From an uncultured Pseudomonadota bacterium (GTDB lineage: Bacteria > UBA10199 > JADFYH01), in NCBI GenBank assembly GCA_964556135.1, contig CAZKUY010000001.1:114750-178749 (forward strand): a stretch of 64,000 bases of DNA. The letters run 5' to 3'. Below are positions 11,901 through 54,229 of the stretch, in pieces; position 1 is the stretch's first letter; every line of letters starts with the position of its first letter. The notes beneath the pieces were generated by a model, which worked only from the letters and a program-made list of their open reading frames with translations, did no database searches and had not been told where the DNA came from. The position numbers were made by a program, and so were the translations under genes.

Positions 11901-11999
11901 GAATCGGTCTCATAAATAGTCTCCAATAGAGACCGATTCCACGAATGGTCTCTGCCGGTGAGCCCTCTCGGGCTCAGCTATCTTATTTAAGAGACCATT
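11901..11999 (+). repeat. two related hairpins sharing the half-site GAAT(C)GGTCTC, just upstream of the slyD-like RBS
   Basis: 11901-11911 pairs perfectly (11 bp) with 11929-11939. 11944-11953 pairs perfectly (10 bp) with 11990-11999 and encloses a 7-bp hairpin TGAGCCC-TCTC-GGGCTCA. Confidence 0.5.
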
Positions 12000-16070: not shown

Positions 16071-18119
16071 ATGAACAGGATCAAGACCTGGGGGCTGATC
16101 GTTGCATGCATGGCTCTATTTATGCCATCCCTGGCATCCGCAGCATCGACCCCGTCAAATAGAATAGTAGCGTATTATACAAACTGGGCGCAGTACAGGC
16201 CGGGCGAATGTAAATTCACACCGCAAAATATTAAAGCCGAGTATCTCACCCATCTCAATTACGCCTTCGCAAAAATCGGACCCGACGACAAAGTACAGCC
16301 TGTCGAGTGGAATGATTTTTTAGATTATGCGCCAGGCATGTATCAACAAGTGAATGCGATTAAAACTCAGTACCCGCATCTGAAAACTTTAATTTCGATC
16401 GGGGGATGGACGCTGAGTAATCAATTTCCAGCCACCGCTTCATCCGCCTCGCGCCGAGCCACTTTCATTCAATCTTCCATTCAATATGCTAGAACTCACG
16501 GCTTCGATGGAATTGATCTCGATTGGGAATATCCTGGCTTTGCTGAGCATTCCGGTACGCCACAAGATAAACAAAATTTCACCTCACTTCTCCGAGAATT
16601 CAGACAAGCGATTAACGCTGAAAATTTGCCTGCGGGAAAATCTCGATTACTACTCACCATTGCTTCTCCTGCAGGTGAAAGTAATTACAACAATATGGAT
16701 CTGGCCCAAATTCACCAGTATTTGGATTGGCTGAATGTCATGACTTACGATTTTCATGGATCCTGGGATTCTGTCTCAGGGGTGAATTCACCTTTGATGC
16801 ATGATTCCGCACCCGGTGGGACTTTTTATATCGACTATACGGTAAATGGTTATTTAAGTCGGGGCGTGCCGGCGGATAAAATCGTTTTAGGAATGCCCAC
16901 CTATGGTCGCTCTTTCGGAGGCGTGCAAGGCACAGCTCCCCATAGTCCGAAGAATCCTGCGGCCGTAGCACCTCGCGGGCGTTGCACTCAGGAAAATGGT
17001 TTCATCGCTTATTATGAAATTAAAGAAATGATTAATAGCGGCGCATACTATAAAGCCTGGGATGCAAATACGGAAACGCCTTATGCTTATGACGGACAAG
17101 GAAATTGGATTTCTTTCGACGATGATGTTTCTACTGCAAAAAAATTAAGTTATTTGCAAAGTAAGAATCTGGGTGGCGCTATGGTTTGGGCCATGGATTT
17201 AGATGAGCGCTATGCTTTGATTGGTCTGATGGCACAAACTCTACGCGGTGTGACTCCTCCTGCGCCGAGTCCGACGCCGACCCCCACACCTACACCGACC
17301 CCCACTCCAACTCCTACGCCAACACCGACTCCTACTCCTACTCCAACGCCTGCGCCGGGAGCACCTTTAACTCAAATCTTATCACCGGATTTGAAATTGG
17401 AAATGGTGGTGGATTCTTCTTGGGGAACGACCGAGCCGTGGAGTGGAGCGAGCATGAAAGCGGTGCTCACCAATACGGGCACTAAATCTTTCTCTCAAGT
17501 TCAATTGAAAGCGAATGCGGGTTCGACCCTTGACGTGTGGAGCATGGATGCAGTTTCTAAAACAGCCACGGAAACAGTCATGCAATTTCCTTCTTGGCAG
17601 GCAGGTTTAGCGCCAGGAAAATCTTTTGCCTTTGGATTTAGCATTGCGCCGAATTCAGCGCCGACTTTCACTGTGCATCAGGCCACCGAGTTGCCGGGAA
17701 GTAGTCCTTCACCTGCACCGACTCCAACGCCTACACCTACACCCACGCCGACTCCAACTCCAACTCCAGCGCCGGTGCCCACGCCTCCTGCTAACGGTGG
17801 CATGACTCAAATCTTAGCGAATGGACTCACGGCAACGATGCACATTGATAATCAGTGGGGAACCACAGAATCTTGGGCGGGCGCAAGCGTGACCGTGACA
17901 GTGAAAAACACTACACCTTCAACGACCTTTAATCCCTTGAGGATAGGAGCCGACATGGGAGCGGGTCTCAATATTTGGAGCATGGATGCCGTCTCCAAAA
18001 CGGCGAATGAAACGGTTGTGCAGTTGCCGAATTATCAGAAGAGCTTGAAACCAGGTCAGTCTTACAGTTTTGGTTTCACGGTATCGCCGATTCGGATTCC
18101 AGTTTTGGGTCTCAAGTAA
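16071..18119 (+). CDS. secreted GH18 chitinase with two C-terminal CBM2-like modules
   Basis: Signal peptide ending in [16 protein letters not shown] catalytic motif, [18 protein letters not shown]. Two homologous ~100-aa modules (W..G...V.V.N...W...G.S..FGF) follow Pro-Thr linkers. Confidence 0.85.
17271..17348 (+). repeat. 13 x (CCN ACN) Pro-Thr linker repeat
   Basis: Direct reading gives 13 consecutive Pro-Thr codon pairs. Confidence 0.9.
17718..17765 (+). repeat. 8 x (CCN ACN) Pro-Thr linker repeat
   Basis: Direct reading gives 8 consecutive Pro-Thr codon pairs. Confidence 0.9.
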
Positions 18120-34174: not shown

Positions 34175-34474
34175 TTACTGTATTTTAACTTTAATGCATT
34201 CTGCGGGGGGTTCCTTACCTCGCTCGCGCATGTAAGATGATAAATCATCCAGCGATGAGTAGCAATTCAGGTTATTTTGGGCCGCTCTCAGCTTGCAGTA
34301 AAGATCAGTATCATTATCGATCATTTTTGCCTTATCACAGCAACGGACAAACCTATCACAATGCGGTCCTTTCGGTGGCCACAAATTGACTCCTCCAACC
34401 AGGACTTGAGTACTGCTTTGTGCAAAGAGAGAAGGGGAGACTAACAAAAAGCTCAGAAGAATGATTTTACGCAT
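34175..34474 (-). CDS. small secreted Cys-rich protein (99 aa)
   Basis: Signal peptide MRKIILLSFLLVSPSLFA-Q. Six Cys in the mature part. Confidence 0.5.
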   Translation of the reverse strand: MRKIILLSFLLVSPSLFAQSSTQVLVGGVNLWPPKGPHCDRFVRCCDKAKMIDNDTDLYCKLRAAQNNLNCYSSLDDLSSYMRERGKEPPAECIKVKIQ

Positions 34475-34582: not shown

Positions 34583-34615
34583 GGAATTATCCTTTTTACG
34601 TCAATTTAGTTTTTT

Positions 34616-37600
34616 TTGGGGCAACTTATGACTCTTGCGACAGGAAATTCTTCCTCATTATTACAGCGCAGATTTTCACAAGCTCAAGCTCCAAGTTTAA
34701 GTGCCGCCCAGCTTGAGATGGATGCGCTGCAAGCCCAACTTCAGACAGAAGCCGGAAACTTTTCCAACCTTCTCGCCATGGCGGGGGGAGGTCTAGCTTA
34801 TAAAGTCGCGCGTTCAGGTTTCCTATCGATCGGTTCCCATCGTGCTTTAGCCGTAATGGGAGGGCTTGCTACGGAAGTGTCCGCTTTTCGGGCGGCGACG
34901 AATGGCTTTGCGAACTTACGAGGTGAAAGACCTCATGAAAATATTTTTGATGCGAAAGCTTGGTTTGGTACTTTCATGAGTTTTGGAGTGCTGAAAGGGG
35001 CGGGACGGCTTGCGCAAGGCCAATCCGCTTTCTTGGCGCATGGCTTTCAGTCTTCAGCGATGGTGGCTGGCAATCAACTCACTTATCATATGGGGCTTAC
35101 CCACGCCCCTGAGGGCAGCTTGTTGCAGCAGCTCATTCATGCAGAAGTGACGAACATGGCGATGATCGGAGGGAATGCGCTGTTAGGGTCGGCGACTGGT
35201 CATTCCTTGGCCTTCTTGGAAAAAAGCTTCGAGTTAAGATCGAGTGCATTCCAAAAAGGGGCTCGCACCTTCAATGCCTTGCCGGCCATGCATCAAAATG
35301 AAATCTTGCAGAGCTTTAAAGACAGTTCCTTGCAAGCAAAACTAAATCCGCTTTTTGAAAAAATCCGCGCAGGTGAATCTGGGCAGCAAGTGGCAAAAGC
35401 TTTGGAGGCCGCAAACATCACTCTAGAAGATGTCGTGGTATACACCGATTTTTCAAATCCCGAGTATGCAAAAAACAATTACGGACGAACGCTTCTCCAT
35501 CGGGATTCCCACTTAGAAGCCCTGGTTTTAGGTTGGAGACCTGGACAACACACGCGTGCTCATGACCATCGCGCCGCGGATGGTTCGCCGGTGAATGTAG
35601 TGGAAACGGCAGTACAAGGGAATGCCGGGGAAATCATCTACGCAAATGAGGGAGCCCGTTGGCGAGAAGTGGAGAGAGTGGTCCAAAAGCCAGGTCAAGT
35701 GATGTCTGGGGGCAAAGACCTTTATCATCTGATCTTCAATGCCGGCGATGGCAACATGATTAGCCTTCATTTATATTGGCCTCCGCTGGATTTGAGTCGT
35801 GGAACTTATCAAGAGTTTGATCCCTGGGCGAGACCGATTTCACTTTCGGATCGAGCGAGAAATTTGGAAATGCCGGGGCCTGCGCAAGTATCGAATTGGA
35901 TTCGCGAACTTCAAGCGAAGGGCGTTGACGATATTATTAATTTAGGAATGGGGCAAAATGGATTTCCACCTGAAGTGCACATTCGGGAAGCTGCGGCCAA
36001 TCAAGCTTTGAACAAGCCTGCCACTTACGGTGCGGTGCAAGGGCAGCCCGAGTTGATCACGTCCATCCGCGAGAAATATCAACGCGATCATGGGGTGAGG
36101 TACAGCGATCAAGAAGTCGTAGTAAGTAATGGCGGAAAATCGTCTCTCACATTAGGCTGCCAAGCACTTTTTCAAAATGGAGAAACAGCGATCATTTTAG
36201 GACCTGCCTGGCCAAGTTACCGCGAGGAAGTGAGTTTAGCGGGAGGAAATCCCGTCATATTATTGGGTGAACGAGAAGCTCAATATCGCATTACCCCTGC
36301 GCAACTCGAACGAACGCTCGATGCACATCCAAATGCGAAGGCATTGATTCTCACCAATCCATCCAATCCCACAGGAATTCTTTATTCTCGAAGCGAGCTT
36401 AAAGCATTTGGTGCTATTGCTGAAAAAAGAGATCTCATTGTGATCGCGGATGAAATTTATGATGGCCACACCTATCGAGGTGACTTTACTGCCTTTGCAT
36501 CACTGCCGAGAATGAGAAGCCGTACTTTGACGATGAACGGTGGCAGTAAAGTCTATTCATTGGCAGGCTGGCGAGTGACTTGGCTCGTCGGTCCTGAAGA
36601 GTTGATTCAAGCTGTGGTGCGCCTTCAAGCGCATGAAGCGTCGAATACCGATACTATGGCGCAAGCGGCATTGACCGCGGCTTTGCAAGGGGAGCAGGGA
36701 TTTATTCGTCGGCAGGTGAGCGAGTTTGAAGCACGTGCAAAACGAATCGTGGCACGTTTGAATGAAATGGAATTACACACGGCCATGCCAGAAGCGGCCT
36801 TCTACGCTTTTGCCGATGCAAGAAAATATTTAAATACGGTGACGCCTGAGGGTTTGCACATCCGAACCGACATCGAGCTCGCGCGCTATCTACTTGAAAA
36901 AGCCCATGTCGCGGTGGTGCCAGGCACTTATTTTTTTGCGCCTGGAAATTTTAGGCTCGCCTTTGGTGGCGCAGAAATTCCTACGATTGAAAGGGCGATG
37001 GATAGAATGGAAGTCGCCCTCAAAGCTTTAAGGCAAAGTGAATTGCCTCCTGAAAGTCCTCCGGCTGCTGCTATAGGAATTGCGGGTGCTGCAGAAAGCA
37101 CAGCGATTGTAGCGACGGCGTTTTCGAGATTGAGGCAGCAAATCGCGCCTTACGCACTCCCAGGATTGGCCCTTGCTTCGATGTGGCAGGGGATGAGTTC
37201 GGGTTGGGCCTTGGTGGCGGGTTTAGGCGTGGCCTTAACGGTGGGCAATCCTTATGGCGAGCTCACGAGCAAAGCGGTGAAACCTTTATTGGCGGCTTCG
37301 CTCATTGGTTTGGGAGCGGGAATGGATTTGAATGCGGTTGCGCGCGCCGGTGCCCACGGAGTTTTTTACACTCTGGGCGGCATCACGATTACGTTGGGCT
37401 TAGGAAAGTTACTGAGTCTAGTGAGTGGTGTAGAGCGCAATCAACGTCGTTTAATTGATTGCGGTACGGCCATTTGCGGAGGAAGCGCGATCGCGGCTAT
37501 CACTCAAACTTTGGGCTTGAAACCTAAAGATCCTGCCGTCTCGGTTGCCTTAGGAACCGTATTTACCTTAAATAGTTTGGCGCTCTTTTTGTTTCCCATG

Positions 37601-38089
37601 ATTGGACATAAGTTGAATATGTCGCAGCACGATTTCGGTCTTTGGTCGGCCATGGCGATTCACGATACGAGTTCGGTAGTGGGCGCCGCGGCTGCCTATG
37701 GTCCCGAAGCCCTCGAAACGGCAACCACCGTAAAATTAGCGCGAGCACTTTGGATTATTCCTTTAGCCTTTGGCATGACTGCCTGGGACCGTCGAAACCA
37801 GGCTCGTTCCGAAAATCCAGCTTCTCGACCGGCTTTTCCAAAATTCATTTTAGGATTTTTAGCCGCTGCAGCCGCCACTACTTTTTTACCTGAGCTCAAA
37901 CCGGCGGGTGATTTCATTGCACATCGTTCGCAGGAAACCATGCGTCTCACCCTTTTTCTGCTTGGTGCCAATATGAATTTTCAATCCCTACGCAAAGTGG
38001 GTCCTAAACCTTTTTTACATGGAGCAGGACTTTGGATTGCAATGGGAGGATTAACGCTTTTAGGAATAGAGCAGGGTTGGATAGACTAA
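34616..38089 (+). CDS. four-module fusion protein: family N-module, cysteine dioxygenase-like cupin, class I/II aminotransferase, and YeiH/UPF0324 membrane transporter domain
   Basis: Uninterrupted 1157-codon ORF (alternative start ATG 34628). aa 1-215 is paralogous to ORFs at 43384, 50765 and 52562. aa ~286-392 has WRPGQHTRAHDH...LYHLIFN...SLHLYWPPLD (CDO-type cupin). aa ~425-805 has NPSNPTG, ADEIY and GGSKVYSLAGWR (PLP lysine). aa ~840-1157 has CGTAICGGSAIAA plus multiple TMs (YeiH family). Confidence 0.8.
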   Translation: MGQLMTLATGNSSSLLQRRFSQAQAPSLSAAQLEMDALQAQLQTEAGNFSNLLAMAGGGLAYKVARSGFLSIGSHRALAVMGGLATEVSAFRAATNGFANLRGERPHENIFDAKAWFGTFMSFGVLKGAGRLAQGQSAFLAHGFQSSAMVAGNQLTYHMGLTHAPEGSLLQQLIHAEVTNMAMIGGNALLGSATGHSLAFLEKSFELRSSAFQKGARTFNALPAMHQNEILQSFKDSSLQAKLNPLFEKIRAGESGQQVAKALEAANITLEDVVVYTDFSNPEYAKNNYGRTLLHRDSHLEALVLGWRPGQHTRAHDHRAADGSPVNVVETAVQGNAGEIIYANEGARWREVERVVQKPGQVMSGGKDLYHLIFNAGDGNMISLHLYWPPLDLSRGTYQEFDPWARPISLSDRARNLEMPGPAQVSNWIRELQAKGVDDIINLGMGQNGFPPEVHIREAAANQALNKPATYGAVQGQPELITSIREKYQRDHGVRYSDQEVVVSNGGKSSLTLGCQALFQNGETAIILGPAWPSYREEVSLAGGNPVILLGEREAQYRITPAQLERTLDAHPNAKALILTNPSNPTGILYSRSELKAFGAIAEKRDLIVIADEIYDGHTYRGDFTAFASLPRMRSRTLTMNGGSKVYSLAGWRVTWLVGPEELIQAVVRLQAHEASNTDTMAQAALTAALQGEQGFIRRQVSEFEARAKRIVARLNEMELHTAMPEAAFYAFADARKYLNTVTPEGLHIRTDIELARYLLEKAHVAVVPGTYFFAPGNFRLAFGGAEIPTIERAMDRMEVALKALRQSELPPESPPAAAIGIAGAAESTAIVATAFSRLRQQIAPYALPGLALASMWQGMSSGWALVAGLGVALTVGNPYGELTSKAVKPLLAASLIGLGAGMDLNAVARAGAHGVFYTLGGITITLGLGKLLSLVSGVERNQRRLIDCGTAICGGSAIAAITQTLGLKPKDPAVSVALGTVFTLNSLALFLFPMIGHKLNMSQHDFGLWSAMAIHDTSSVVGAAAAYGPEALETATTVKLARALWIIPLAFGMTAWDRRNQARSENPASRPAFPKFILGFLAAAAATTFLPELKPAGDFIAHRSQETMRLTLFLLGANMNFQSLRKVGPKPFLHGAGLWIAMGGLTLLGIEQGWID

Positions 38090-38619
38090 GAAGATTCGCC
38101 TATGAGCTGTCTAAACAAGCTCGACTCTCTCTTATAAAAACCTTCGGTATGAAAAGAGTCACCTAGTTTAAAATAAGTATAATCTAAATGGTGCAAGGCT
38201 TCGTGCAGCACAGTGCGTAGAAAACTGCGAAACGCTACTACCTGCACCCGCTTGGCGGTGCGCATCCATACGGTAATTAAATAGAGTCCTCTACGAGAAT
38301 CGCATTGATAAAGTCCGTGGAGTTCTCCCCAGTTTTTTGAGGGTCGTCGTTCTAAAACCTTTGCCTTCACGGGGGGGATGCCAAATAAGTGGCAGAGGTA
38401 AGTCAGAAACTGTTGCACCTTCTCTTCGGTTTTTATTTGATTGCCCGTGGCTAATGCTTCCACCATCTCTTTGAGTACGGATTGAAAGAGATCGACTCGG
38501 GGGAGATTCACATAAGAAATTTGATCGCTTTTCTCGTAAATTTTTTTCTGAAAAGGCTTCAGTCGTTTGTAGTAGGCGTAGGGCAATTTTTCTTCCTTAT
38601 TATTTATTTTCTGATTCAC
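38086..38619 (-). CDS. putative zinc metallopeptidase-like protein (HExxH)
   Basis: VLHEALHHLDY motif near the C-terminus. No signal peptide. Overlaps the upstream gene by 20 nt. Confidence 0.45.
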   Translation of the reverse strand: MNQKINNKEEKLPYAYYKRLKPFQKKIYEKSDQISYVNLPRVDLFQSVLKEMVEALATGNQIKTEEKVQQFLTYLCHLFGIPPVKAKVLERRPSKNWGELHGLYQCDSRRGLYLITVWMRTAKRVQVVAFRSFLRTVLHEALHHLDYTYFKLGDSFHTEGFYKRESSLFRQLIGESS

Positions 38620-39763: not shown

Positions 39764-40138
39764 ATGGGAAAGAAACTCTATGTAGGGAGTCTTCCTTATT
39801 CAACCAACGAAGATGAATTACGAGATATGTTCGGAGCATGTGGCTCTGTGGACAGTGTCGCAATCATCCAAGATAAATTTTCCGGTAAGTCCAAAGGTTT
39901 TGGATTCGTCGAAATGAGCAATGACGACGAAGCGGAAAAAGCCATTAACGAGTTAAACGGCAAAGAAATGGGTGGTCGTACCATTGTTGTCAACGAAGCT
40001 CGTCCCCCTGAAAAACGCGCTGGCGGATTCGGTGGCGGTGGCGGACGCGGTGGCCGTGGCGGCGGATTCGGTGGCGGCGGAGGCGGCGGAGGCCGTGACC
40101 GTGGCGATCGAGGCGGCGGAGGCCGTGGTCGTTGGTAA
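39764..40138 (+). CDS. RRM-type RNA-binding protein with Gly/Arg-rich tail
   Basis: RNP2 LYVGSL and RNP1 KGFGFVEM. C-terminal GGFGGGGGRGGRGG repeats. Confidence 0.9.
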   Translation: MGKKLYVGSLPYSTNEDELRDMFGACGSVDSVAIIQDKFSGKSKGFGFVEMSNDDEAEKAINELNGKEMGGRTIVVNEARPPEKRAGGFGGGGGRGGRGGGFGGGGGGGGRDRGDRGGGGRGRW

Positions 40139-43383: not shown

Positions 43384-46059
43384 ATGACTCGTGTATCGGC
43401 CAACCTGCGTTTTCTATCGGATGTTTCTTCCATTTCTGGGGGAAATATTGCTGCGTTTTCGCGGGCGCAATTGCAGAATGACGCGTCGAGTTATGGCCTG
43501 TCGGAAGAACTCAGTCATTGGCAGTCTTTGGGCGCGATGACTTTAGGAAGCTTATCCTATCGTTTGAGCGGTCTTGTCTTGCGCTCCGTGATGCCAGGGC
43601 TGAGTCGATATCTCGCTCCTGCTTTCGCATTAGGTTCTGAAGTGGCCACTTATGAACTGAGTCAACGTTCTCTTCTTTCTCTCTCAGATTCTACTTCTCA
43701 CTCAAATTTATTTTCCTGGTCTGGCACCGGCGGGATTGAAGAAGGTCTTCGAGTTTCCTACGTGAATTTTGCTTTTCTAAAAATAGGCGGACATTTTCAT
43801 TCCCGAAATTTATTTCTTCAACATCTCACTCAAGCCTCAGCGATGGTGGCAGGTCATGCGGCCACAGCGGGATTAGGTTGGGTGGAAGAAGAAAAAGGAA
43901 GTCTTTTCGAAAGATTAGTTCATGCGGAAGCAATGAATTTGCAAATGGGTATCGCGATGACGCTTCTCCATGGATTTTTACCTCAAGTCCGAAGCATAGA
44001 AAATGATGTGAACAGACGCATTCACGCCTTGCCGACCGCTGAAAATTTTCAATTTCGAAATAATGTTGAAAACTTAGCAATGAGATCTGCGAGAAGAACT
44101 CGCCAACCAGTGCCTCCTGGTGTTTTGCCAATGCCCGCCATTATTCAAGGTTATTTTTCCGAGCTTGAAAGTTTGGATGTTCAAGTCCGTTTGGGGGGAT
44201 TGAGAGCTTTGGGAATGTTGAAACCGGAAGCACGTATTAATGGAAGAATTTTGATGTGTTTGGGAGATCCTGAAGCGCAAGTTCGATTAGAAGCGATTAA
44301 AATTATGGATAGAAATGATCCTGTCCAATTACTCGAAGTGCTGAGACAACTTCAGGGGAAACCCGATCCAGACTCAGGTGTTCGCTTTTTGATAGAGACT
44401 GTGATTTGTAGAAAAGTGGTTCATTCCTCACCTTTGGTGCCCTTTGATCATACTGCGCAGGCCAAAGCTGAAAGGGACTTGCTGCAACTGATGCGTCCGA
44501 ATATGGGCCTTTTGATTGCGATGGGGGGAACTTGGGGGGCTGTTTTTGATGCTGCTTTTGCAAGAAGAACCGGCTCGGATGGGTTTTTAAGGAGAGAAAT
44601 AACAGATGGAACTTTAAGGAAGAAATTGCCTGCTCGAAGGGCGCCTGATCAAATTATCCCTGCCGATTTGGGTTTAAGTTCTTACCGAGGTCGTTACACT
44701 GTGGAAGCGTGGCGTAGACATGCTCGGCAAGCTCTTTCAGATGATAGGCGTCGTGAAGTGACAAGATGCCGGGAGCAAGTCGAAAAGAATTTAAGAGGGA
44801 AGCTCCATAAAGATAATTTATGGCTCCAAGGTTTAATGGAAACGGCCCTCATCGAAGAGCGTTACGGAACTTTGGAAGCTATCAGACAGAGAACCGTGAC
44901 CGATAGGATTGTGGAAGCGCTGAGATGTATTGAAGTGGAACAACGTTCGACTTTTTACGAAGTCATTCTCGAACAAATTTTGGATCATAGCCAAACTCAA
45001 GAGCAGGTGGGGGCTTTAGTAGAGCAATATTTTGTTTTTTGCAAAACATTGGGCCAGCGCAATTTTAAAGCTTCTTTAAGCGCAAGCTTCGATAGAAGAG
45101 TTTTATACGAAGTTGGAAGAGAGCTTCCCGAGGGAAGTCGCTGGTATTTTAATGAACAAGTTGAATTCGTGATAGATGAGGTTTTTGCAGGAATTTATGA
45201 AGAGTTTTTGCTTCGTGGAATCAGCGCAGAGGAAGCGGTCTTAGAAATGGAAACTCTTTTGCGAGAGGGTCGCTTGCACAGGGCTGTCATTCATCGTTGG
45301 GAGAATTGTAGGAGCTCTGCGGTCAGTCCTTTTGAAAGTGTGGATGAAAGACACCCTGTCGAGCAGTTTGATGCGGCCTGTAAACATTTGCTCGAGAAAA
45401 AAGACCTGCCGAGCCCTCGAGAAGATAGAGAGGCTTGCGTCGTGTTGGCAAGAATCTCTGCGGTCCATCCGGATCTTTTCCGCTCTGAGCATTTGGCTGT
45501 TTTATTGAAAATATTTGAAGAAAGAAGATTGTTTGAAATTAATGAGATTTTCCGAAATATATTGGATGCGACTTATTTTCCTGACACCGATCCTGTGATT
45601 GGGCTTCAAATTTTAAATGCGCACCTGGCCTATGAAATAGGAGACATCGAAACATTTCCAGTCGAATTTAAAGGGGGCGATTGTTTAGACCCAAGCCTAG
45701 AAGCCCGTGAGCGCGTGATCGATTTAGCCCGTCGCTACAAGGAATTTTTTTATATCAGGCATTTAACTATTAACTCTACTGCATGGCTTCAAAGTGGTAG
45801 CCAGCATGTATTAGATGGATGGCGTCGTGAATTGCTTTCAGTATTCGGGATGAGGGATGATGCCGGCGTCATTGCAGAGATGAATGCACAAGTCATTGCC
45901 AGACATCATGTTAATACTCATCCCTTAACTCAGGATTCAGAAAGTCGAAGTCGCTTATTGGAGGGAGAGGAAGTTCCTTTGCCATTGATACGAACGCCGC
46001 AAGCCATTCCCTTGGTGGGTCCCCCTAGAACTTCTTCAAAGCCTGGACCAAATCATTGA
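43384..46059 (+). CDS. family N-module protein with HEAT-like repeats and a long all-alpha C-terminal region (891 aa)
   Basis: aa 1-212 is paralogous to the other three family members. aa ~255-330 has VQVRLGGLRALG / EAQVRLEAIKIM HEAT-like repeats. The rest is unrecognised. Confidence 0.6.
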   Translation: MTRVSANLRFLSDVSSISGGNIAAFSRAQLQNDASSYGLSEELSHWQSLGAMTLGSLSYRLSGLVLRSVMPGLSRYLAPAFALGSEVATYELSQRSLLSLSDSTSHSNLFSWSGTGGIEEGLRVSYVNFAFLKIGGHFHSRNLFLQHLTQASAMVAGHAATAGLGWVEEEKGSLFERLVHAEAMNLQMGIAMTLLHGFLPQVRSIENDVNRRIHALPTAENFQFRNNVENLAMRSARRTRQPVPPGVLPMPAIIQGYFSELESLDVQVRLGGLRALGMLKPEARINGRILMCLGDPEAQVRLEAIKIMDRNDPVQLLEVLRQLQGKPDPDSGVRFLIETVICRKVVHSSPLVPFDHTAQAKAERDLLQLMRPNMGLLIAMGGTWGAVFDAAFARRTGSDGFLRREITDGTLRKKLPARRAPDQIIPADLGLSSYRGRYTVEAWRRHARQALSDDRRREVTRCREQVEKNLRGKLHKDNLWLQGLMETALIEERYGTLEAIRQRTVTDRIVEALRCIEVEQRSTFYEVILEQILDHSQTQEQVGALVEQYFVFCKTLGQRNFKASLSASFDRRVLYEVGRELPEGSRWYFNEQVEFVIDEVFAGIYEEFLLRGISAEEAVLEMETLLREGRLHRAVIHRWENCRSSAVSPFESVDERHPVEQFDAACKHLLEKKDLPSPREDREACVVLARISAVHPDLFRSEHLAVLLKIFEERRLFEINEIFRNILDATYFPDTDPVIGLQILNAHLAYEIGDIETFPVEFKGGDCLDPSLEARERVIDLARRYKEFFYIRHLTINSTAWLQSGSQHVLDGWRRELLSVFGMRDDAGVIAEMNAQVIARHHVNTHPLTQDSESRSRLLEGEEVPLPLIRTPQAIPLVGPPRTSSKPGPNH

Positions 46060-50735: not shown

Positions 50736-50797
50736 ACCTGCATATTATTACAGAGTTTTATGAGGTGGCTGCATGGGGTCTGCAGTGTTTATCGTTT

Positions 50798-52402
50798 GTG
50801 GCAAGGTTAAATCTATCATCTTCTATTTCAGCTCATAGTGAATCCTGGGTCAGTCGTTCCGGCTTAGAGATTGATGCCGCTGTGCAGGCTGTGACTACTG
50901 AAGCGCTGCGATTCGATTCTCTTTTGGCCATGATGGCTGGAGGGCTAGCTTACCGTTTTACGAAAGCGGCGAGTTTGTCTTGTCTATCTGGAGTTTTTTC
51001 TCCCGCCTTAGCTTTGACCGGAGAAGTTTTTACTTATGAGAGTGTCCATCGAGCCTTTGGACAAAATCAGAATTCCTTTTCAGAGGGCTTTCGCAGCTCT
51101 TTTCTTACTTTCGGGGTATTGAAAAGTTTTTCTCACATTTTTAAATCACAAAATATTTTTCTACGACATCTTAGTCAAGATGTCGGTGTGGTGCTGTCAG
51201 AAGAAGCAGCGTTTTGGTCTGGCTTTGGACTTAGCCCTAGTGGAAGTATTTTCCAAAGACTCTTACATGCGGAAAGCAGCAATCTTTGTTTAGGGATAGG
51301 AATGTATTGCGGACATTTATTCACAGGTGGAATTTTTCAAATTTGTGAAAATGCTTTGGCAAGATCCATACAAATTCACTCGAGCATGCAGCGAAATTCT
51401 CCTGCTTCGTTTCAATTTTTGGAAAGTGTTCGTGCCGAAGGAGGAAGTTTTACTTCCCTTTTAAGTGTAAGAGAGAAAAATTTTATTCAACAAAGTTTAG
51501 CAAAAATTGACGCTCGAGCTTTTCGCTCCGGCATCACGGCTGAACGTTTGGTGCAATATCGACAAGTCCTGCAAGAAATGGGTATCCAGCGTTCGTTTGT
51601 AGAAGGACGTCGGCGTTTGATCGAAATTTTGCGAGAAGATTGGATAGAAAAGTGCGAAGAAATTGGAATCGAAGTAAAAAGATTAAAGTTAAGTGAATAT
51701 GTAGCTTTGCTTCGCGCTTGCCGTCAAAGCGTGCCTAGTTGGGTCGATGCTTTTATAGTAGAAAGCGAAACCAATGCAGCCCTGGAAGTTATTTCACTCA
51801 CTTCTTACGGCTGTGGCAGTTTGGATCATGACGACGCCCTCTTAAGAATAGAGGAAGAGAATTATCTTGGTTTGCATTTTGGAGGATCCACGGATCAAAA
51901 ACTTATCACAGAGCCTCTGGGTTTAAGCCCCGGAGCCTTAAGTAATTCGATGGATGAGTTGCGCCCTCAAAATTCTGAATGGCGCAGATTCTTTCTGCCT
52001 GATGAATTGATTTTGCAATCAGCAGGGAGGGCTCATTCCCATATTGCCCCAGGACTCCATTCTTATGCAGAGTTCTGTAGTCTCGATGAAGTGCGGGAAT
52101 CACGAGCTGTGGATGCATGGGTGTTACATTTAAGTCCTGAAGAAAAAGTTCCATTTCACGATAGCAAATTTCATCCCTACCTTGCGATTGTTCACGATAT
52201 CCATATTCATTGGAACTATCTGAATCGCTTCAATCCTGAAGTGAGGATGGAAAAAGTAAGCGCATTTGATCATATAAAAAGAGAGCGAATTCATGTGAAT
52301 GAGAGACGAAGAACGATGCTCAGGGACTCAGATATTGCAGAAATATTGGAAGGCCTTTGGGATCACCATGAGGCACAAAGAACCCTAGAAAATAGCCGAT
52401 AG
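50798..52402 (+). CDS. family N-module protein, C/D subtype (tandem paralog 1)
   Basis: The ORF is open from GTG 50765. I prefer GTG 50798 (V-A-R-L...) because it is homologous in sequence and position to the only possible start of the paralog at 52562 (GTG GCA AGA CTG). Confidence 0.6.
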   Translation: MARLNLSSSISAHSESWVSRSGLEIDAAVQAVTTEALRFDSLLAMMAGGLAYRFTKAASLSCLSGVFSPALALTGEVFTYESVHRAFGQNQNSFSEGFRSSFLTFGVLKSFSHIFKSQNIFLRHLSQDVGVVLSEEAAFWSGFGLSPSGSIFQRLLHAESSNLCLGIGMYCGHLFTGGIFQICENALARSIQIHSSMQRNSPASFQFLESVRAEGGSFTSLLSVREKNFIQQSLAKIDARAFRSGITAERLVQYRQVLQEMGIQRSFVEGRRRLIEILREDWIEKCEEIGIEVKRLKLSEYVALLRACRQSVPSWVDAFIVESETNAALEVISLTSYGCGSLDHDDALLRIEEENYLGLHFGGSTDQKLITEPLGLSPGALSNSMDELRPQNSEWRRFFLPDELILQSAGRAHSHIAPGLHSYAEFCSLDEVRESRAVDAWVLHLSPEEKVPFHDSKFHPYLAIVHDIHIHWNYLNRFNPEVRMEKVSAFDHIKRERIHVNERRRTMLRDSDIAEILEGLWDHHEAQRTLENSR

Positions 52403-52561: not shown

Positions 52562-54229
52562 GTGGCAAGACTGTGTTCTCCAACTACTTTCAATCTTTCA
52601 AATAGCTCACTTTTGTCTTATGCAAAAGTGCAAGCGAATGTAAGTACGTTACAGCTAGAATTAGATGCGACTGTTCAATCTGTAGTGCGCGAAGCTAGTC
52701 GATTTGAGTCGTTGTTTGCGATGATGAGTGGAAGCGCTGCCTATCGTTTGGTGAAAAATTCCTCATTATCCTTTTTTTCTCATCTTTCTCCCTTCCATTC
52801 TTCGGTCGCACTTTTGTCTTCCGTGGCCTCACCACTGGTGGGTTTGCTCGCGGAAGTGCCTGTTTACGAAGGCCTGCATCGAGGCCTTTTAAAACTCATG
52901 GGACACGAAGAAGCGGGAAGTTTTGCGGAAGGCTTAAGGACTTCATTTTTCAATTTTGCTTGTATAAAAACCTTTGCGCAATTGGGAGCGGGACAGCATT
53001 TTTTATTGCGGCGCTTGAGTCAAGATTTAGGCATGGTGCTAGGAAATGATCTCACGACTTGTTTAGGATGGACTCCAAGACAAGAGGGATCTTATGTGAA
53101 GCGCTTGCTGCAAGCCGAGGCCATGAGTTTTTCCATGGAAGCAGGAATGTTCTTAGCTCAAGGATTAATTGGCTCGCATGTGTTGCGGCAAGTGTGCTCC
53201 TTTCAATCAGCAAATTCACTTACGGAAGTCGGCTTGAGAACATTTGCAGCTGACGGCAGTGGCTTCAGTTATCATCCAGAGTTCAACTTGAGAAACCGCG
53301 CCTTCGTAAGCGATAGCTTATCCAAAATTTCCTCTCCTACTTTTCGTTCCGGGATTACTCCTGCAAGGCTGAGTCGCTATCGACAAACTTTAGAACGCAT
53401 GCGAGACTTTAAAATTCCTTTCCTCGAAGGCAGAAGGAATTTGATGGAAGTTTTGCGGGAAGATTGGGTGGAGAAATGCGAAGCCACTGGAGCCGAAGTG
53501 GGCAGGATTCGCCTCGATGATTTTGTGGGAGGTTTGAGGCGAGATGGAAAGAAAGTGCCTCCATGGGTCGATGAGTTTATCCGAGAAAGCGAAGCGAATG
53601 CGGCTTTGGAGGTTATTTCCTTACTGCGTGGCCCCATTGGGCATTTGTCCGCAGATGAAAAAATGCGGAAAATGGATAAAGAGGAATATTTGGGCTTTAA
53701 CTTCGGGAGTCAAACGGATTTCTCCCTCATCGCAGAGTCTTTGGGTTTCAAGAATGATGCCTTATTGAAATGCGAAGTTGATTTAACTCAAATTCCTGCA
53801 GTGAGGGAGAAGCGCTATTACTTGCCGGATGAACTCATTTTGCAATCCGGGAACAGAACTCACCCGCATGCGGCTGCGAATTTGGATACTTATGTGGATT
53901 TTTGCAACGAAACGCAAATCACTAGCTCTCGTTCCGATGATGCCTGGGTGCTGCAGCTCACTCCCGAAGCAAGCGCGCAATTTCATGGGGGCACTTATCA
54001 TTCTTACATATCCCTGCTTCATGACTTGCATGTGCATTGGAATGTCCTTAACAACTTCCACCCCTTGATGCGTTGGGAGCAAATTGACACTTACATCCGA
54101 CTACATCGAGTTCCCGCAAACTTACGTCGAAATCGCCTGAGCGATCAGCGCTTAGGAGAAATTATCGAAGGATCATTTAGATGTTCTATTGCTAAGCAAA
54201 TCTTAAAAGATCATTTTCCGGACTATTAA
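52562..54229 (+). CDS. family N-module protein, C/D subtype (tandem paralog 2)
   Basis: 555-aa ORF, collinear and similar to the 50798 gene over its full length. An in-frame TAG at 52546-52548 excludes any earlier start. Confidence 0.6.
   Translation: MARLCSPTTFNLSNSSLLSYAKVQANVSTLQLELDATVQSVVREASRFESLFAMMSGSAAYRLVKNSSLSFFSHLSPFHSSVALLSSVASPLVGLLAEVPVYEGLHRGLLKLMGHEEAGSFAEGLRTSFFNFACIKTFAQLGAGQHFLLRRLSQDLGMVLGNDLTTCLGWTPRQEGSYVKRLLQAEAMSFSMEAGMFLAQGLIGSHVLRQVCSFQSANSLTEVGLRTFAADGSGFSYHPEFNLRNRAFVSDSLSKISSPTFRSGITPARLSRYRQTLERMRDFKIPFLEGRRNLMEVLREDWVEKCEATGAEVGRIRLDDFVGGLRRDGKKVPPWVDEFIRESEANAALEVISLLRGPIGHLSADEKMRKMDKEEYLGFNFGSQTDFSLIAESLGFKNDALLKCEVDLTQIPAVREKRYYLPDELILQSGNRTHPHAAANLDTYVDFCNETQITSSRSDDAWVLQLTPEASAQFHGGTYHSYISLLHDLHVHWNVLNNFHPLMRWEQIDTYIRLHRVPANLRRNRLSDQRLGEIIEGSFRCSIAKQILKDHFPDY

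Follow-up and report, generated by a model that had tools for sequence, protein, structure and literature searches.

A candidate cysteine-to-sulfite pathway fused to a YeiH-family membrane domain and an undescribed N-terminal module in an uncultured bacterium

This work deals with a 64,000-nucleotide stretch of DNA (hereafter the window; positions 114,750 to 178,749 of contig CAZKUY010000001.1) from an uncultured Pseudomonadota bacterium, and in particular with one gene at window positions 34616-38089 on the + strand. This gene joins in one open reading frame (ORF) an undescribed N-terminal domain (the N-module), a cysteine dioxygenase (CDO), an aspartate-type aminotransferase and a YeiH/UPF0324 membrane domain. 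Judging from conserved residues and structural models, we think it rather probable that the encoded protein would combine on a single polypeptide the oxidation of cysteine to cysteine sulfinate, the conversion of the latter into pyruvate and sulfite, and export by the YeiH domain. The fusion itself is, on sequence grounds, one real gene that encodes an inner-membrane protein of four domains, because the ORF is intact, the same architecture and synteny are found in independent assemblies, and the domains are joined without a compositional seam.

A Single Gene with Four Parts

The ORF listing gives a single ORF of 1157 codons from the TTG at 34616, with no competing long ORF. Its translation is free of interruptions up to the stop codon at 38087-38089, which bears out the uninterrupted frame claimed in a preliminary description of this DNA made from the letters alone. 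Since every ortholog begins at the methionine of codon 5, the true start is probably the ATG at 34628, which would give a protein of 1153 amino acids (aa) instead of 1157. The motifs that the preliminary description had read in the frame (AHDH, LYHLIF, SLHLYWPPLD, NPSNPTG, ADEIY, SKVYSLAGWR and CGTAICGGSAIAA) are all present in the translation, and a Pfam search backs the three assignments made there, namely CDO, class I aminotransferase and YeiH. The GC content of the fusion ORF (34600-37900) is 0.45-0.55 in 300-bp bins, mostly about 0.50, with 0.38-0.45 in the flanks, a difference of about 5-10 GC points. This rise is even over all four domains and passes the domain junctions smoothly; it could stem from an Ala/Gly-rich composition or from a history unlike that of the neighbouring genes. 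Scans for promoters and terminators gave nothing exceeding the shuffled expectation.

Orthologs were sought among 5.8 billion protein clusters. The search recovered an identical protein from another assembly and three diverged full-length orthologs (P0002, P0003 and P0004, with 69%, 67% and 64% identity, respectively), in which the four parts and their order are retained. P0005, the fourth of these relatives, is formed by N-module, CDO and YeiH, the aminotransferase having been removed by a clean in-frame deletion. The identity of the relatives to the window protein is 64-72% over the aligned parts. They derive from separate samples (ENA, JGI and several SRA runs), and in the five lineages one reading frame is maintained through all junctions. 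The neighbourhood is also shared, comprising an HI0933-like flavoprotein, Bax1-I, the fusion, LssY_C, an RRM protein, DUF4442, a zinc alcohol dehydrogenase and PntAB. The preliminary description had proposed a database search for the same domain order and a check on assembly artefacts; the order is present in independent assemblies, which stand in for resequencing.

The alignment of the orthologs is informative about the junctions as well. The linker between N-module and CDO and the one between aminotransferase and YeiH vary in sequence and length. The latter is a Pro/Ala-rich stretch (aa ~807-845; 37034..37150, +) with little conservation among orthologs in alignment columns 870-910. The linker between CDO and aminotransferase is short and conserved. 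Two variable linkers together with a short, conserved one make up the pattern that would be expected of a real multidomain protein. Suspicion of an assembly chimera, a sequencing-error read-through of adjacent genes or a decaying pseudogene could be raised by the metagenome-type assembly that is the source and by the fact that 1150-aa multidomain fusions with a transporter are unusual. Such artefacts are effectively refuted, and we give them next to no weight: the frame is intact across the junctions in five lineages from independent samples (ENA, JGI, SRA), the catalytic residues are conserved and GC is even over the ORF.

Among the 5.8 billion clusters, only this small clade has producer enzymes and exporter joined covalently. 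A scan of GTDB species representatives with a profile of N-module plus CDO gave no ortholog, and a scan of JGI metagenomes returned only the organism of P0004 again, plus one further N-module gene. The preliminary description knew of no earlier account of this architecture, and our literature search agrees with it, as no description of a CDO/YeiH-type fusion was found.

Cysteine Dioxygenase Domain

The cupin that follows the N-module (aa 226-393; 35291..35794, +) is supported by Pfam, a PDB profile search and a structural model as an Arg-type cysteine dioxygenase of the thiol dioxygenase group, putatively catalyzing the conversion of L-cysteine into cysteine sulfinate. CDO_I (PF05995) matches these residues over profile positions 2-163 of 170 with 32.1 bits, above the gathering score of 23; the resemblance to type I CDO had been noticed before for a shorter stretch (aa ~286-392). 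When a profile of the orthologous cupins was searched against the PDB, Bacillus subtilis CDO was retrieved with E 2e-10 and mammalian CDO with E ~1e-4.

The active site was compared in an alignment of 18 sequences, formed by 5 fused domains and 13 stand-alone homologues. Y289, R291, H316, H318, H371, H385 and Y387 are invariant in all 18, and S383 of the window protein is Thr in the other 17, the hydroxyl being retained. The eight residues Y289, R291, H316, H318, H371, S383, H385 and Y387 correspond to Y58, R60, H86, H88, H140, S153, H155 and Y157 of rat CDO, and the three His H316, H318 and H371 are aligned with the iron ligands of B. subtilis CDO. The codons of the active site lie at 35486..35776 (+), with R291 at 35486-88, H316 at 35561-63, H318 at 35567-69, H371 at 35726-28 and Y387 at 35774-76; Y289, S383 and H385 complete the set.

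The metal site was also looked for in a structural model, as the preliminary description had proposed. The AlphaFold2 model obtained from the homologue alignment is a confident one (predicted local distance difference test, pLDDT, 84.8; predicted template-modelling score, pTM, 0.82) and keeps the three His. Its best PDB match with Foldseek is the Cys-bound B. subtilis CDO 4qm9, with E 4e-13, a target-normalised template-modelling (TM) score of 0.80-0.87 and a root-mean-square deviation of 2.5-3.1 Å, and the next-best ones are rat and human CDO. Thus, B. subtilis CdoA/YubC (3eqe, 4qm8, 4qm9) is the known enzyme to which the domain may best be compared. Besides the cupin fold, both have a 3-His iron site, the Tyr-x-Arg motif for the substrate carboxylate and the Ser/Thr-His-Tyr triad; at the third His, the G-L-x-H is spaced alike in both, and neither has a Cys-Tyr cross-link. 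In contrast, CdoA/YubC is a soluble enzyme of ~160 aa, whereas here the cupin is embedded in a 1153-aa membrane protein.

Aminotransferase Domain

The next domain (aa ~410-806; 35843..37033, +) matches subgroup-Ib aspartate aminotransferases (AspATs) in Pfam, NCBIfam and PDB searches. Aminotran_1_2 covers aa 439-797 with 201 bits and E 3e-59, in accordance with the class I aminotransferase with intact pyridoxal 5'-phosphate (PLP) signatures that had been placed earlier at ~aa 425-805. The best NCBIfam matches are aspartate transaminase models (2e-81), with NF004769 at the top. The closest solved structures align over the full length with E values from 5e-66, for Sinorhizobium meliloti AatB (6f35), to 3e-51, and include AatA (6f77) and the Phormidium (1j32) and Thermus (1bkg) enzymes. 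Alignment to AspATs, in particular 6f35 and 6f77, shows that the catalytic residues are present: the PLP lysine K645 (36548-36550, +) in SK645VYSLAGWR, NPSNPTG, the D-x-x-Y of ADEIY, the alpha-carboxylate Arg in FRLAF and the GGK lysine in NGGKS. In Thermus AspAT, this last lysine binds the distal acidic group. Unlike the subgroup-Ib enzymes, the domain has GMGQNGF in place of the usual GEPDF and is fused at both ends.

YeiH Membrane Domain

The C-terminal part (aa ~846-1157; 37151..38086, +) is a YeiH/UPF0324 (TC 2.A.98) membrane domain, probably polytopic, assigned by PF03601, TIGR00698 and hydropathy. Cons_hypoth698/PF03601 matches aa 884-1134 with 155.4 bits and E 2e-45, far over the gathering score of 24.5, so that the earlier assignment (~aa 840-1157) stands. 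With the YeiH of Salmonella and BP2808 of Bordetella pertussis it shares the signal of both families, the conserved segment CGTAICGGSAIAA and about nine hydrophobic segments, seen after aa ~850 in the Kyte-Doolittle plot. A search by sequence against solved structures gave no match for this domain.

The recent work on this family is of great help for reading the fusion. [quoted passage not shown] From the topology predicted in this way for the E. coli and Salmonella proteins, the N-terminus of the YeiH domain is predicted to be cytoplasmic also in the fusion. An N-in topology is the one that an N-terminal fusion to Fe/O2- and PLP-dependent enzymes calls for. In B. pertussis, two CDO genes are induced by an excess of cysteine together with BP2808, the homologue of yeiH, and there is hardly any growth of a BP2808 mutant in the presence of sulfite (bioRxiv 10.64898/2026.04.22.720190). 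Thus, a functional link between CDO and YeiH is already published, for separate genes.

Two differences from the characterised systems should be mentioned. No YeiE-type LysR regulator was identified among the flanking genes scanned around the fusion, unlike in Salmonella. Moreover, in the fusion the link to CDO is covalent instead of being one of co-regulation.

Proposed Pathway and Its Alternatives

In the mechanism that we propose, the YeiH domain would anchor the protein in the inner membrane, and N-module, CDO and aminotransferase would sit on the cytoplasmic side, directly on the transporter. The Fe(II) cupin would use O2 for oxidizing L-cysteine to cysteine sulfinate. The AspAT-type domain, presumably dimeric like other AspATs, would then transfer the amino group to 2-oxoglutarate, giving 3-sulfinylpyruvate, which would decompose spontaneously into pyruvate and sulfite. 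Finally, the YeiH domain would remove the toxic sulfite where it is made. It is established that AspATs convert cysteine sulfinate into beta-sulfinylpyruvate, which breaks down into pyruvate and sulfite/SO2 (PMC10308199, PMC4709694), and the B. pertussis preprint gives the same overall fate for cysteine sulfinate (bioRxiv 10.64898/2026.04.22.720190). From this chemistry we infer that the exported species is sulfite. Physiologically, the protein probably serves to dispose of excess cysteine or to catabolise it, the sulfite being removed at once.

The components have precedents as separate genes. B. pertussis has the same ones, CDO (BP2871, BP3011) and YeiH (BP2808), for a proposed route from cysteine through cysteine sulfinate to sulfite and its export; there, unlike here, the genes are separate, no dedicated aminotransferase takes part and the CDOs are mammalian-like and contain the Cys, and the window protein adds the N-module. 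In dermatophytes (Grumbt et al. 2013, as cited in PMC4756042), CDO-dependent sulfite production by Cdo1 is likewise coupled to a sulfite exporter, Ssu1; unlike the present case, that system is eukaryotic, uses separate genes and an unrelated exporter of the Ssu1/TDT type, and serves extracellular keratin sulfitolysis.

Several observations weigh against the complete route, beginning with the aminotransferase. In P0005 (L008 4201-6537) the whole domain is gone, in frame. In P0002 and P0008 the PLP lysine is replaced by Glu (AAA to GAA; in P0002 at L011 ~11920-11950), and the same two proteins have Cys for Trp (TGG to TGT) in the SKxxxxxGWR motif, two turns after the Lys; P0007, which belongs to the same 90% cluster, retains both residues. 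The NF004769 score of the domain is 273.7 bits, with a cut-off of 617, and it falls below every NCBIfam equivalog cut-off, so that the domain is by its scores AspAT-like and not an equivalog. As for the cupin, its identity to characterised CDOs (including CdoA/YubC) is only ~25%, five residues are inserted after HxH in the fused clade, and Cys is missing from the window protein at the position of the Cys-Tyr cross-link, a residue that is present in P0004 and in stand-alone relatives. The cross-link is a mammalian feature that bacterial CDOs do not need, and other bacterial CDOs lack the Cys as well. Besides, no YeiH or aminotransferase gene lies near three stand-alone CDO relatives whose neighbourhoods were examined. 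The transporter contributes two further points: TIGR00698, the YeiH family putative sulfate export transporter model, gives 87.3 bits (E 1e-24), below its cut-off of 232.6, which makes the domain a divergent family member by this measure, and the evidence for transport by YeiH and for its substrate is genetic, not direct (PMC12880088; bioRxiv 10.64898/2026.04.22.720190). The preliminary description had claimed a complete cysteine-to-sulfite route plus exporter on one polypeptide. The domains, residues and literature are coherent with this claim, which has to be restricted by the loss or mutation of the aminotransferase in two lineages; judging from these sequences, the three-step route is not obligatorily encoded in cis. 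Because of the P0005 deletion and the mutated lysine of P0002 and P0008, CDO plus YeiH appears to be the conserved core of the fusion. The aminotransferase is presumably a dispensable add-on that could be replaced by a housekeeping AspAT.

These natural variants also speak for a different transport substrate. CDO and YeiH, which stay highly conserved while the aminotransferase is deleted or loses its lysine, might be the functional unit, with the transporter moving cysteine sulfinate or another organic sulfur acid and the aminotransferase as a dispensable or dimerising passenger. The membrane domain has in fact weak Pfam similarity to the organic-acid permeases GntP and KdgT, and the evidence for the substrate of YeiH is genetic. 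However, the window protein and three other lineages retain all the aminotransferase catalytic residues, the linker from CDO to aminotransferase is short and conserved, a housekeeping AspAT could substitute for the lost domain, and YeiH mutants are specifically sensitive to sulfite (PMC12880088; bioRxiv 10.64898/2026.04.22.720190). On balance we consider the transport of cysteine sulfinate unlikely. We find it more improbable still that the cupin has 3-mercaptopropionate, cysteamine, ergothioneine or mercaptopyruvate as its thiol instead of cysteine, and that the aminotransferase acts earlier or on another substrate. The modest Pfam score of 32 bits, the low identity to characterised CDOs and the insertion near the active site would allow it, and ergothioneine dioxygenase and 3-mercaptopropionate dioxygenase structures match the model with E 1e-8 to 1e-10. 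It is the substrate Arg that disfavours a different thiol, because it is invariant, as part of the Tyr-x-Arg motif for the cysteine carboxylate. This residue separates the Arg-type cysteine dioxygenases from the Gln-type 3-mercaptopropionate dioxygenases, which relocate the Arg (PMC8050391). The latter are matched by the cupin profile with E ~0.07 only, the alignment with ergothioneine dioxygenase is without this Arg, and the top structural match is a CDO with bound Cys.

A further alternative accepts the chemistry of the cysteine-to-sulfite route and changes its physiological purpose. Sulfite might be wanted outside the cell, for reducing disulfide-rich extracellular substrates or for harming neighbours, and a producer-exporter fusion maximises the yield of exported sulfite. 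Chemistry and logic would be as in the keratin degradation of dermatophytes, for which Cdo1 and the Ssu1 pump are needed (Grumbt et al. 2013, as cited in PMC4756042), and secreted polymer-degrading enzymes are encoded nearby, e.g., a GH18 chitinase-like protein at 16071-18119. Against such dedicated secretion, neither the window nor the related loci have linked genes for a protease, a keratinase or anything disulfide-related, and nothing sets it apart from simple detoxification; we give it little credit.

We think that the fusion is of interest beyond this clade. The superfamily of each catalytic part, the pathway chemistry and the CDO-YeiH association were known already; what is new is the covalent fusion of producer and exporter and its attachment to a large undescribed family of N-terminal domains. 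YeiH is among the most widespread uncharacterised bacterial membrane proteins, and its genetic tie to sulfite resistance dates only from 2026 (PMC12880088). A natural fusion of YeiH to both sulfite-making enzymes provides independent comparative (Rosetta-stone) evidence for what YeiH handles, and, if the protein truly works as a metabolon, this would be direct evidence of that kind that YeiH transporters carry sulfite. Moreover, soluble catabolic pathways are rarely joined in this way to the exporter of their product, which bears on the channelling of a toxic intermediate. From the practical side, a single construct would let production and export be assayed together, and nature has already supplied controls for this, in the variants that lack the aminotransferase or have an inactive one.

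The N-Module

The N-module (aa 5 to ~220; 34628..35275, +) is an all-helical domain defined by window paralogs, a cluster scan and an AlphaFold2 model. The 'family N-module' that the preliminary description had marked at aa 1-215 is real: aa 11-225 of the fusion match three other window ORFs at ~30% identity with E 1e-12 to 1e-16. All three lie less than 20 kb from the fusion and encode proteins of 891 aa (43384..46059, +), with a weak HEAT match in the C-terminal part, 545 aa (50765..52402, +) and 555 aa (52562..54229, +). The last two are tandem duplicates, 39% identical over their full length, and their C-terminal regions have no Pfam or NCBIfam match.

A word-indexed search with the N-module profile gave one match only, for which reason an exhaustive HMMER scan of 1.84 billion representatives was made. 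It gave at least 874 clusters (counted at 50% identity), 403 of them at E <= 1e-30. In every case it occupies the extreme N-terminus, and the host proteins range from 236 to 4060 aa. The cargo was classified with Pfam in 115 members, and its diversity is large: Ser/Thr kinases, GGDEF, PAS/HATPase/REC, FHA, sigma-70 region 2, ResIII/DEAD helicases, phosphoribosyltransferase, amine oxidase, FGE-sulfatase, cytochrome P450, malic enzyme, acyltransferase, aminotransferase and HEAT/LRV repeats. For a large number of members no recognised Pfam domain seems to be present, and even the commonest family matched only 3-4 members per set. The identified cargo is all of cytoplasmic type, and in the Pfam scans of these 115 members a transporter is found in no other N-module protein. 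The only named genome found with the family is 'MAG: bacterium isolate STL-UBA2', which has at least five loci according to a search with two narrow peptide patterns.

The N-module itself has no match in Pfam (E<=10), NCBIfam, PADLOC or PHROGs; as there is no match in the last two, its consideration as a defence-system or phage module was set aside. The AlphaFold2 model from a 60-sequence alignment has seven helices of 17-26 residues, with pLDDT 87.8 and pTM 0.76. Foldseek retrieved no significant neighbour of this model from the PDB (best E 0.8, TM score <= 0.26) or from BFVD (best E 0.48). The helices are Gly/Ala-rich and only moderately hydrophobic, with Kyte-Doolittle maxima of ~1.0, and contain Glu, Lys, His, Gln and Asn residues that are invariant or nearly so. 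They are preceded by a short leader, rich in Ser and Leu and poor in acidic residues, in which the motif S-L-L-x-R recurs, followed by Q-x-Q-V-D. A role of this leader as Sec/Tat signal was rejected, since it has no hydrophobic h-region and the RR of the window protein is unconserved in the orthologs. A classical membrane anchor is judged unlikely in view of the low hydropathy and of the conserved charged and polar residues inside the helices. We lean toward a soluble or peripheral cytoplasmic domain rather than such an anchor.

Our best guess is that the N-module is a shared localisation, assembly or regulatory handle that brings enzymes to a common site or partner, and the range of its cargo suggests a general role in localisation or assembly. 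More tentatively, and with clear doubts, we can imagine an undescribed and expanded cytoplasmic targeting or assembly domain that, in a poorly sampled lineage of bacteria, gathers dozens of unrelated proteins at a single site or partner in the cell, among which the fusion would be a self-contained, membrane-docked metabolon channelling cysteine sulfur out as sulfite. Being outside the searched libraries and without detectable structural relative, this family may prove to be the more important finding.

Genomic Context

Three related lineages have, in divergent orientation to the fusion, a partner gene for a 1212-1262-aa protein (L001 6071-9859, L009 6066-9839 and L011 6229-9867, all on the - strand) formed by an N-module, a PrmA/MTS-like methyltransferase and a distant class I/II aminotransferase. 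This partner is missing from the window, L002 and L008. Its aminotransferase was considered as a recent paralogue of that of the fusion, which was rejected as both are only 22% identical.

Two small ORFs flank the fusion in the window. The one at 34175-34474 (-) encodes 99 aa with a signal-peptide-like N-terminus (MRKIILLSFLLVSPSLFAQ) and six Cys, and has no family match; L002, L008 and L011 have a gene of the same size at the matching place, with Bax1-I on one side and the fusion on the other. The one at 38086-38619 (-), of 177 aa, is convergent with the fusion and overlaps its stop codon by 4 nt. It has no Pfam match, and its HExxH motif (LHEALHHLD) suggests a small protein resembling zinc metalloproteases.

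A sulfate transporter of the SulP family (Sulfate_transp + STAS) is encoded beside LssY_C, a few kb from the fusion, in two lineages (L001 14827-16548, - and L009 17305-19059, -) and is absent from the window. The RRM_1 protein of the syntenic block has 123-124 aa (L002 9125-9499, L008 9947-10321, L009 19566-19937). Window ORF 39764-40138 (+) matches this gene by size and position, the Pfam call coming from the related loci only. The product of 16071-18119 (+) has 682 aa; its N-terminal half resembles GH18 chitinases (ChiD model, E 3e-35), and a short segment is SslE-like.

In the whole 64-kb window, no tRNA, rRNA, tmRNA or Rfam family was detected at the gathering threshold, and the plasmid search gave no match. 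The GC content of the window is ~0.44, and it encodes Omp85, ClpA, PntAB, histidine kinases and the GH18-like protein. O2-dependent enzymes are found in the fusion, which has the CDO, and elsewhere in the N-module family. Taken together, these features suggest that the host is an aerobic Gram-negative heterotroph of a poorly sampled lineage.

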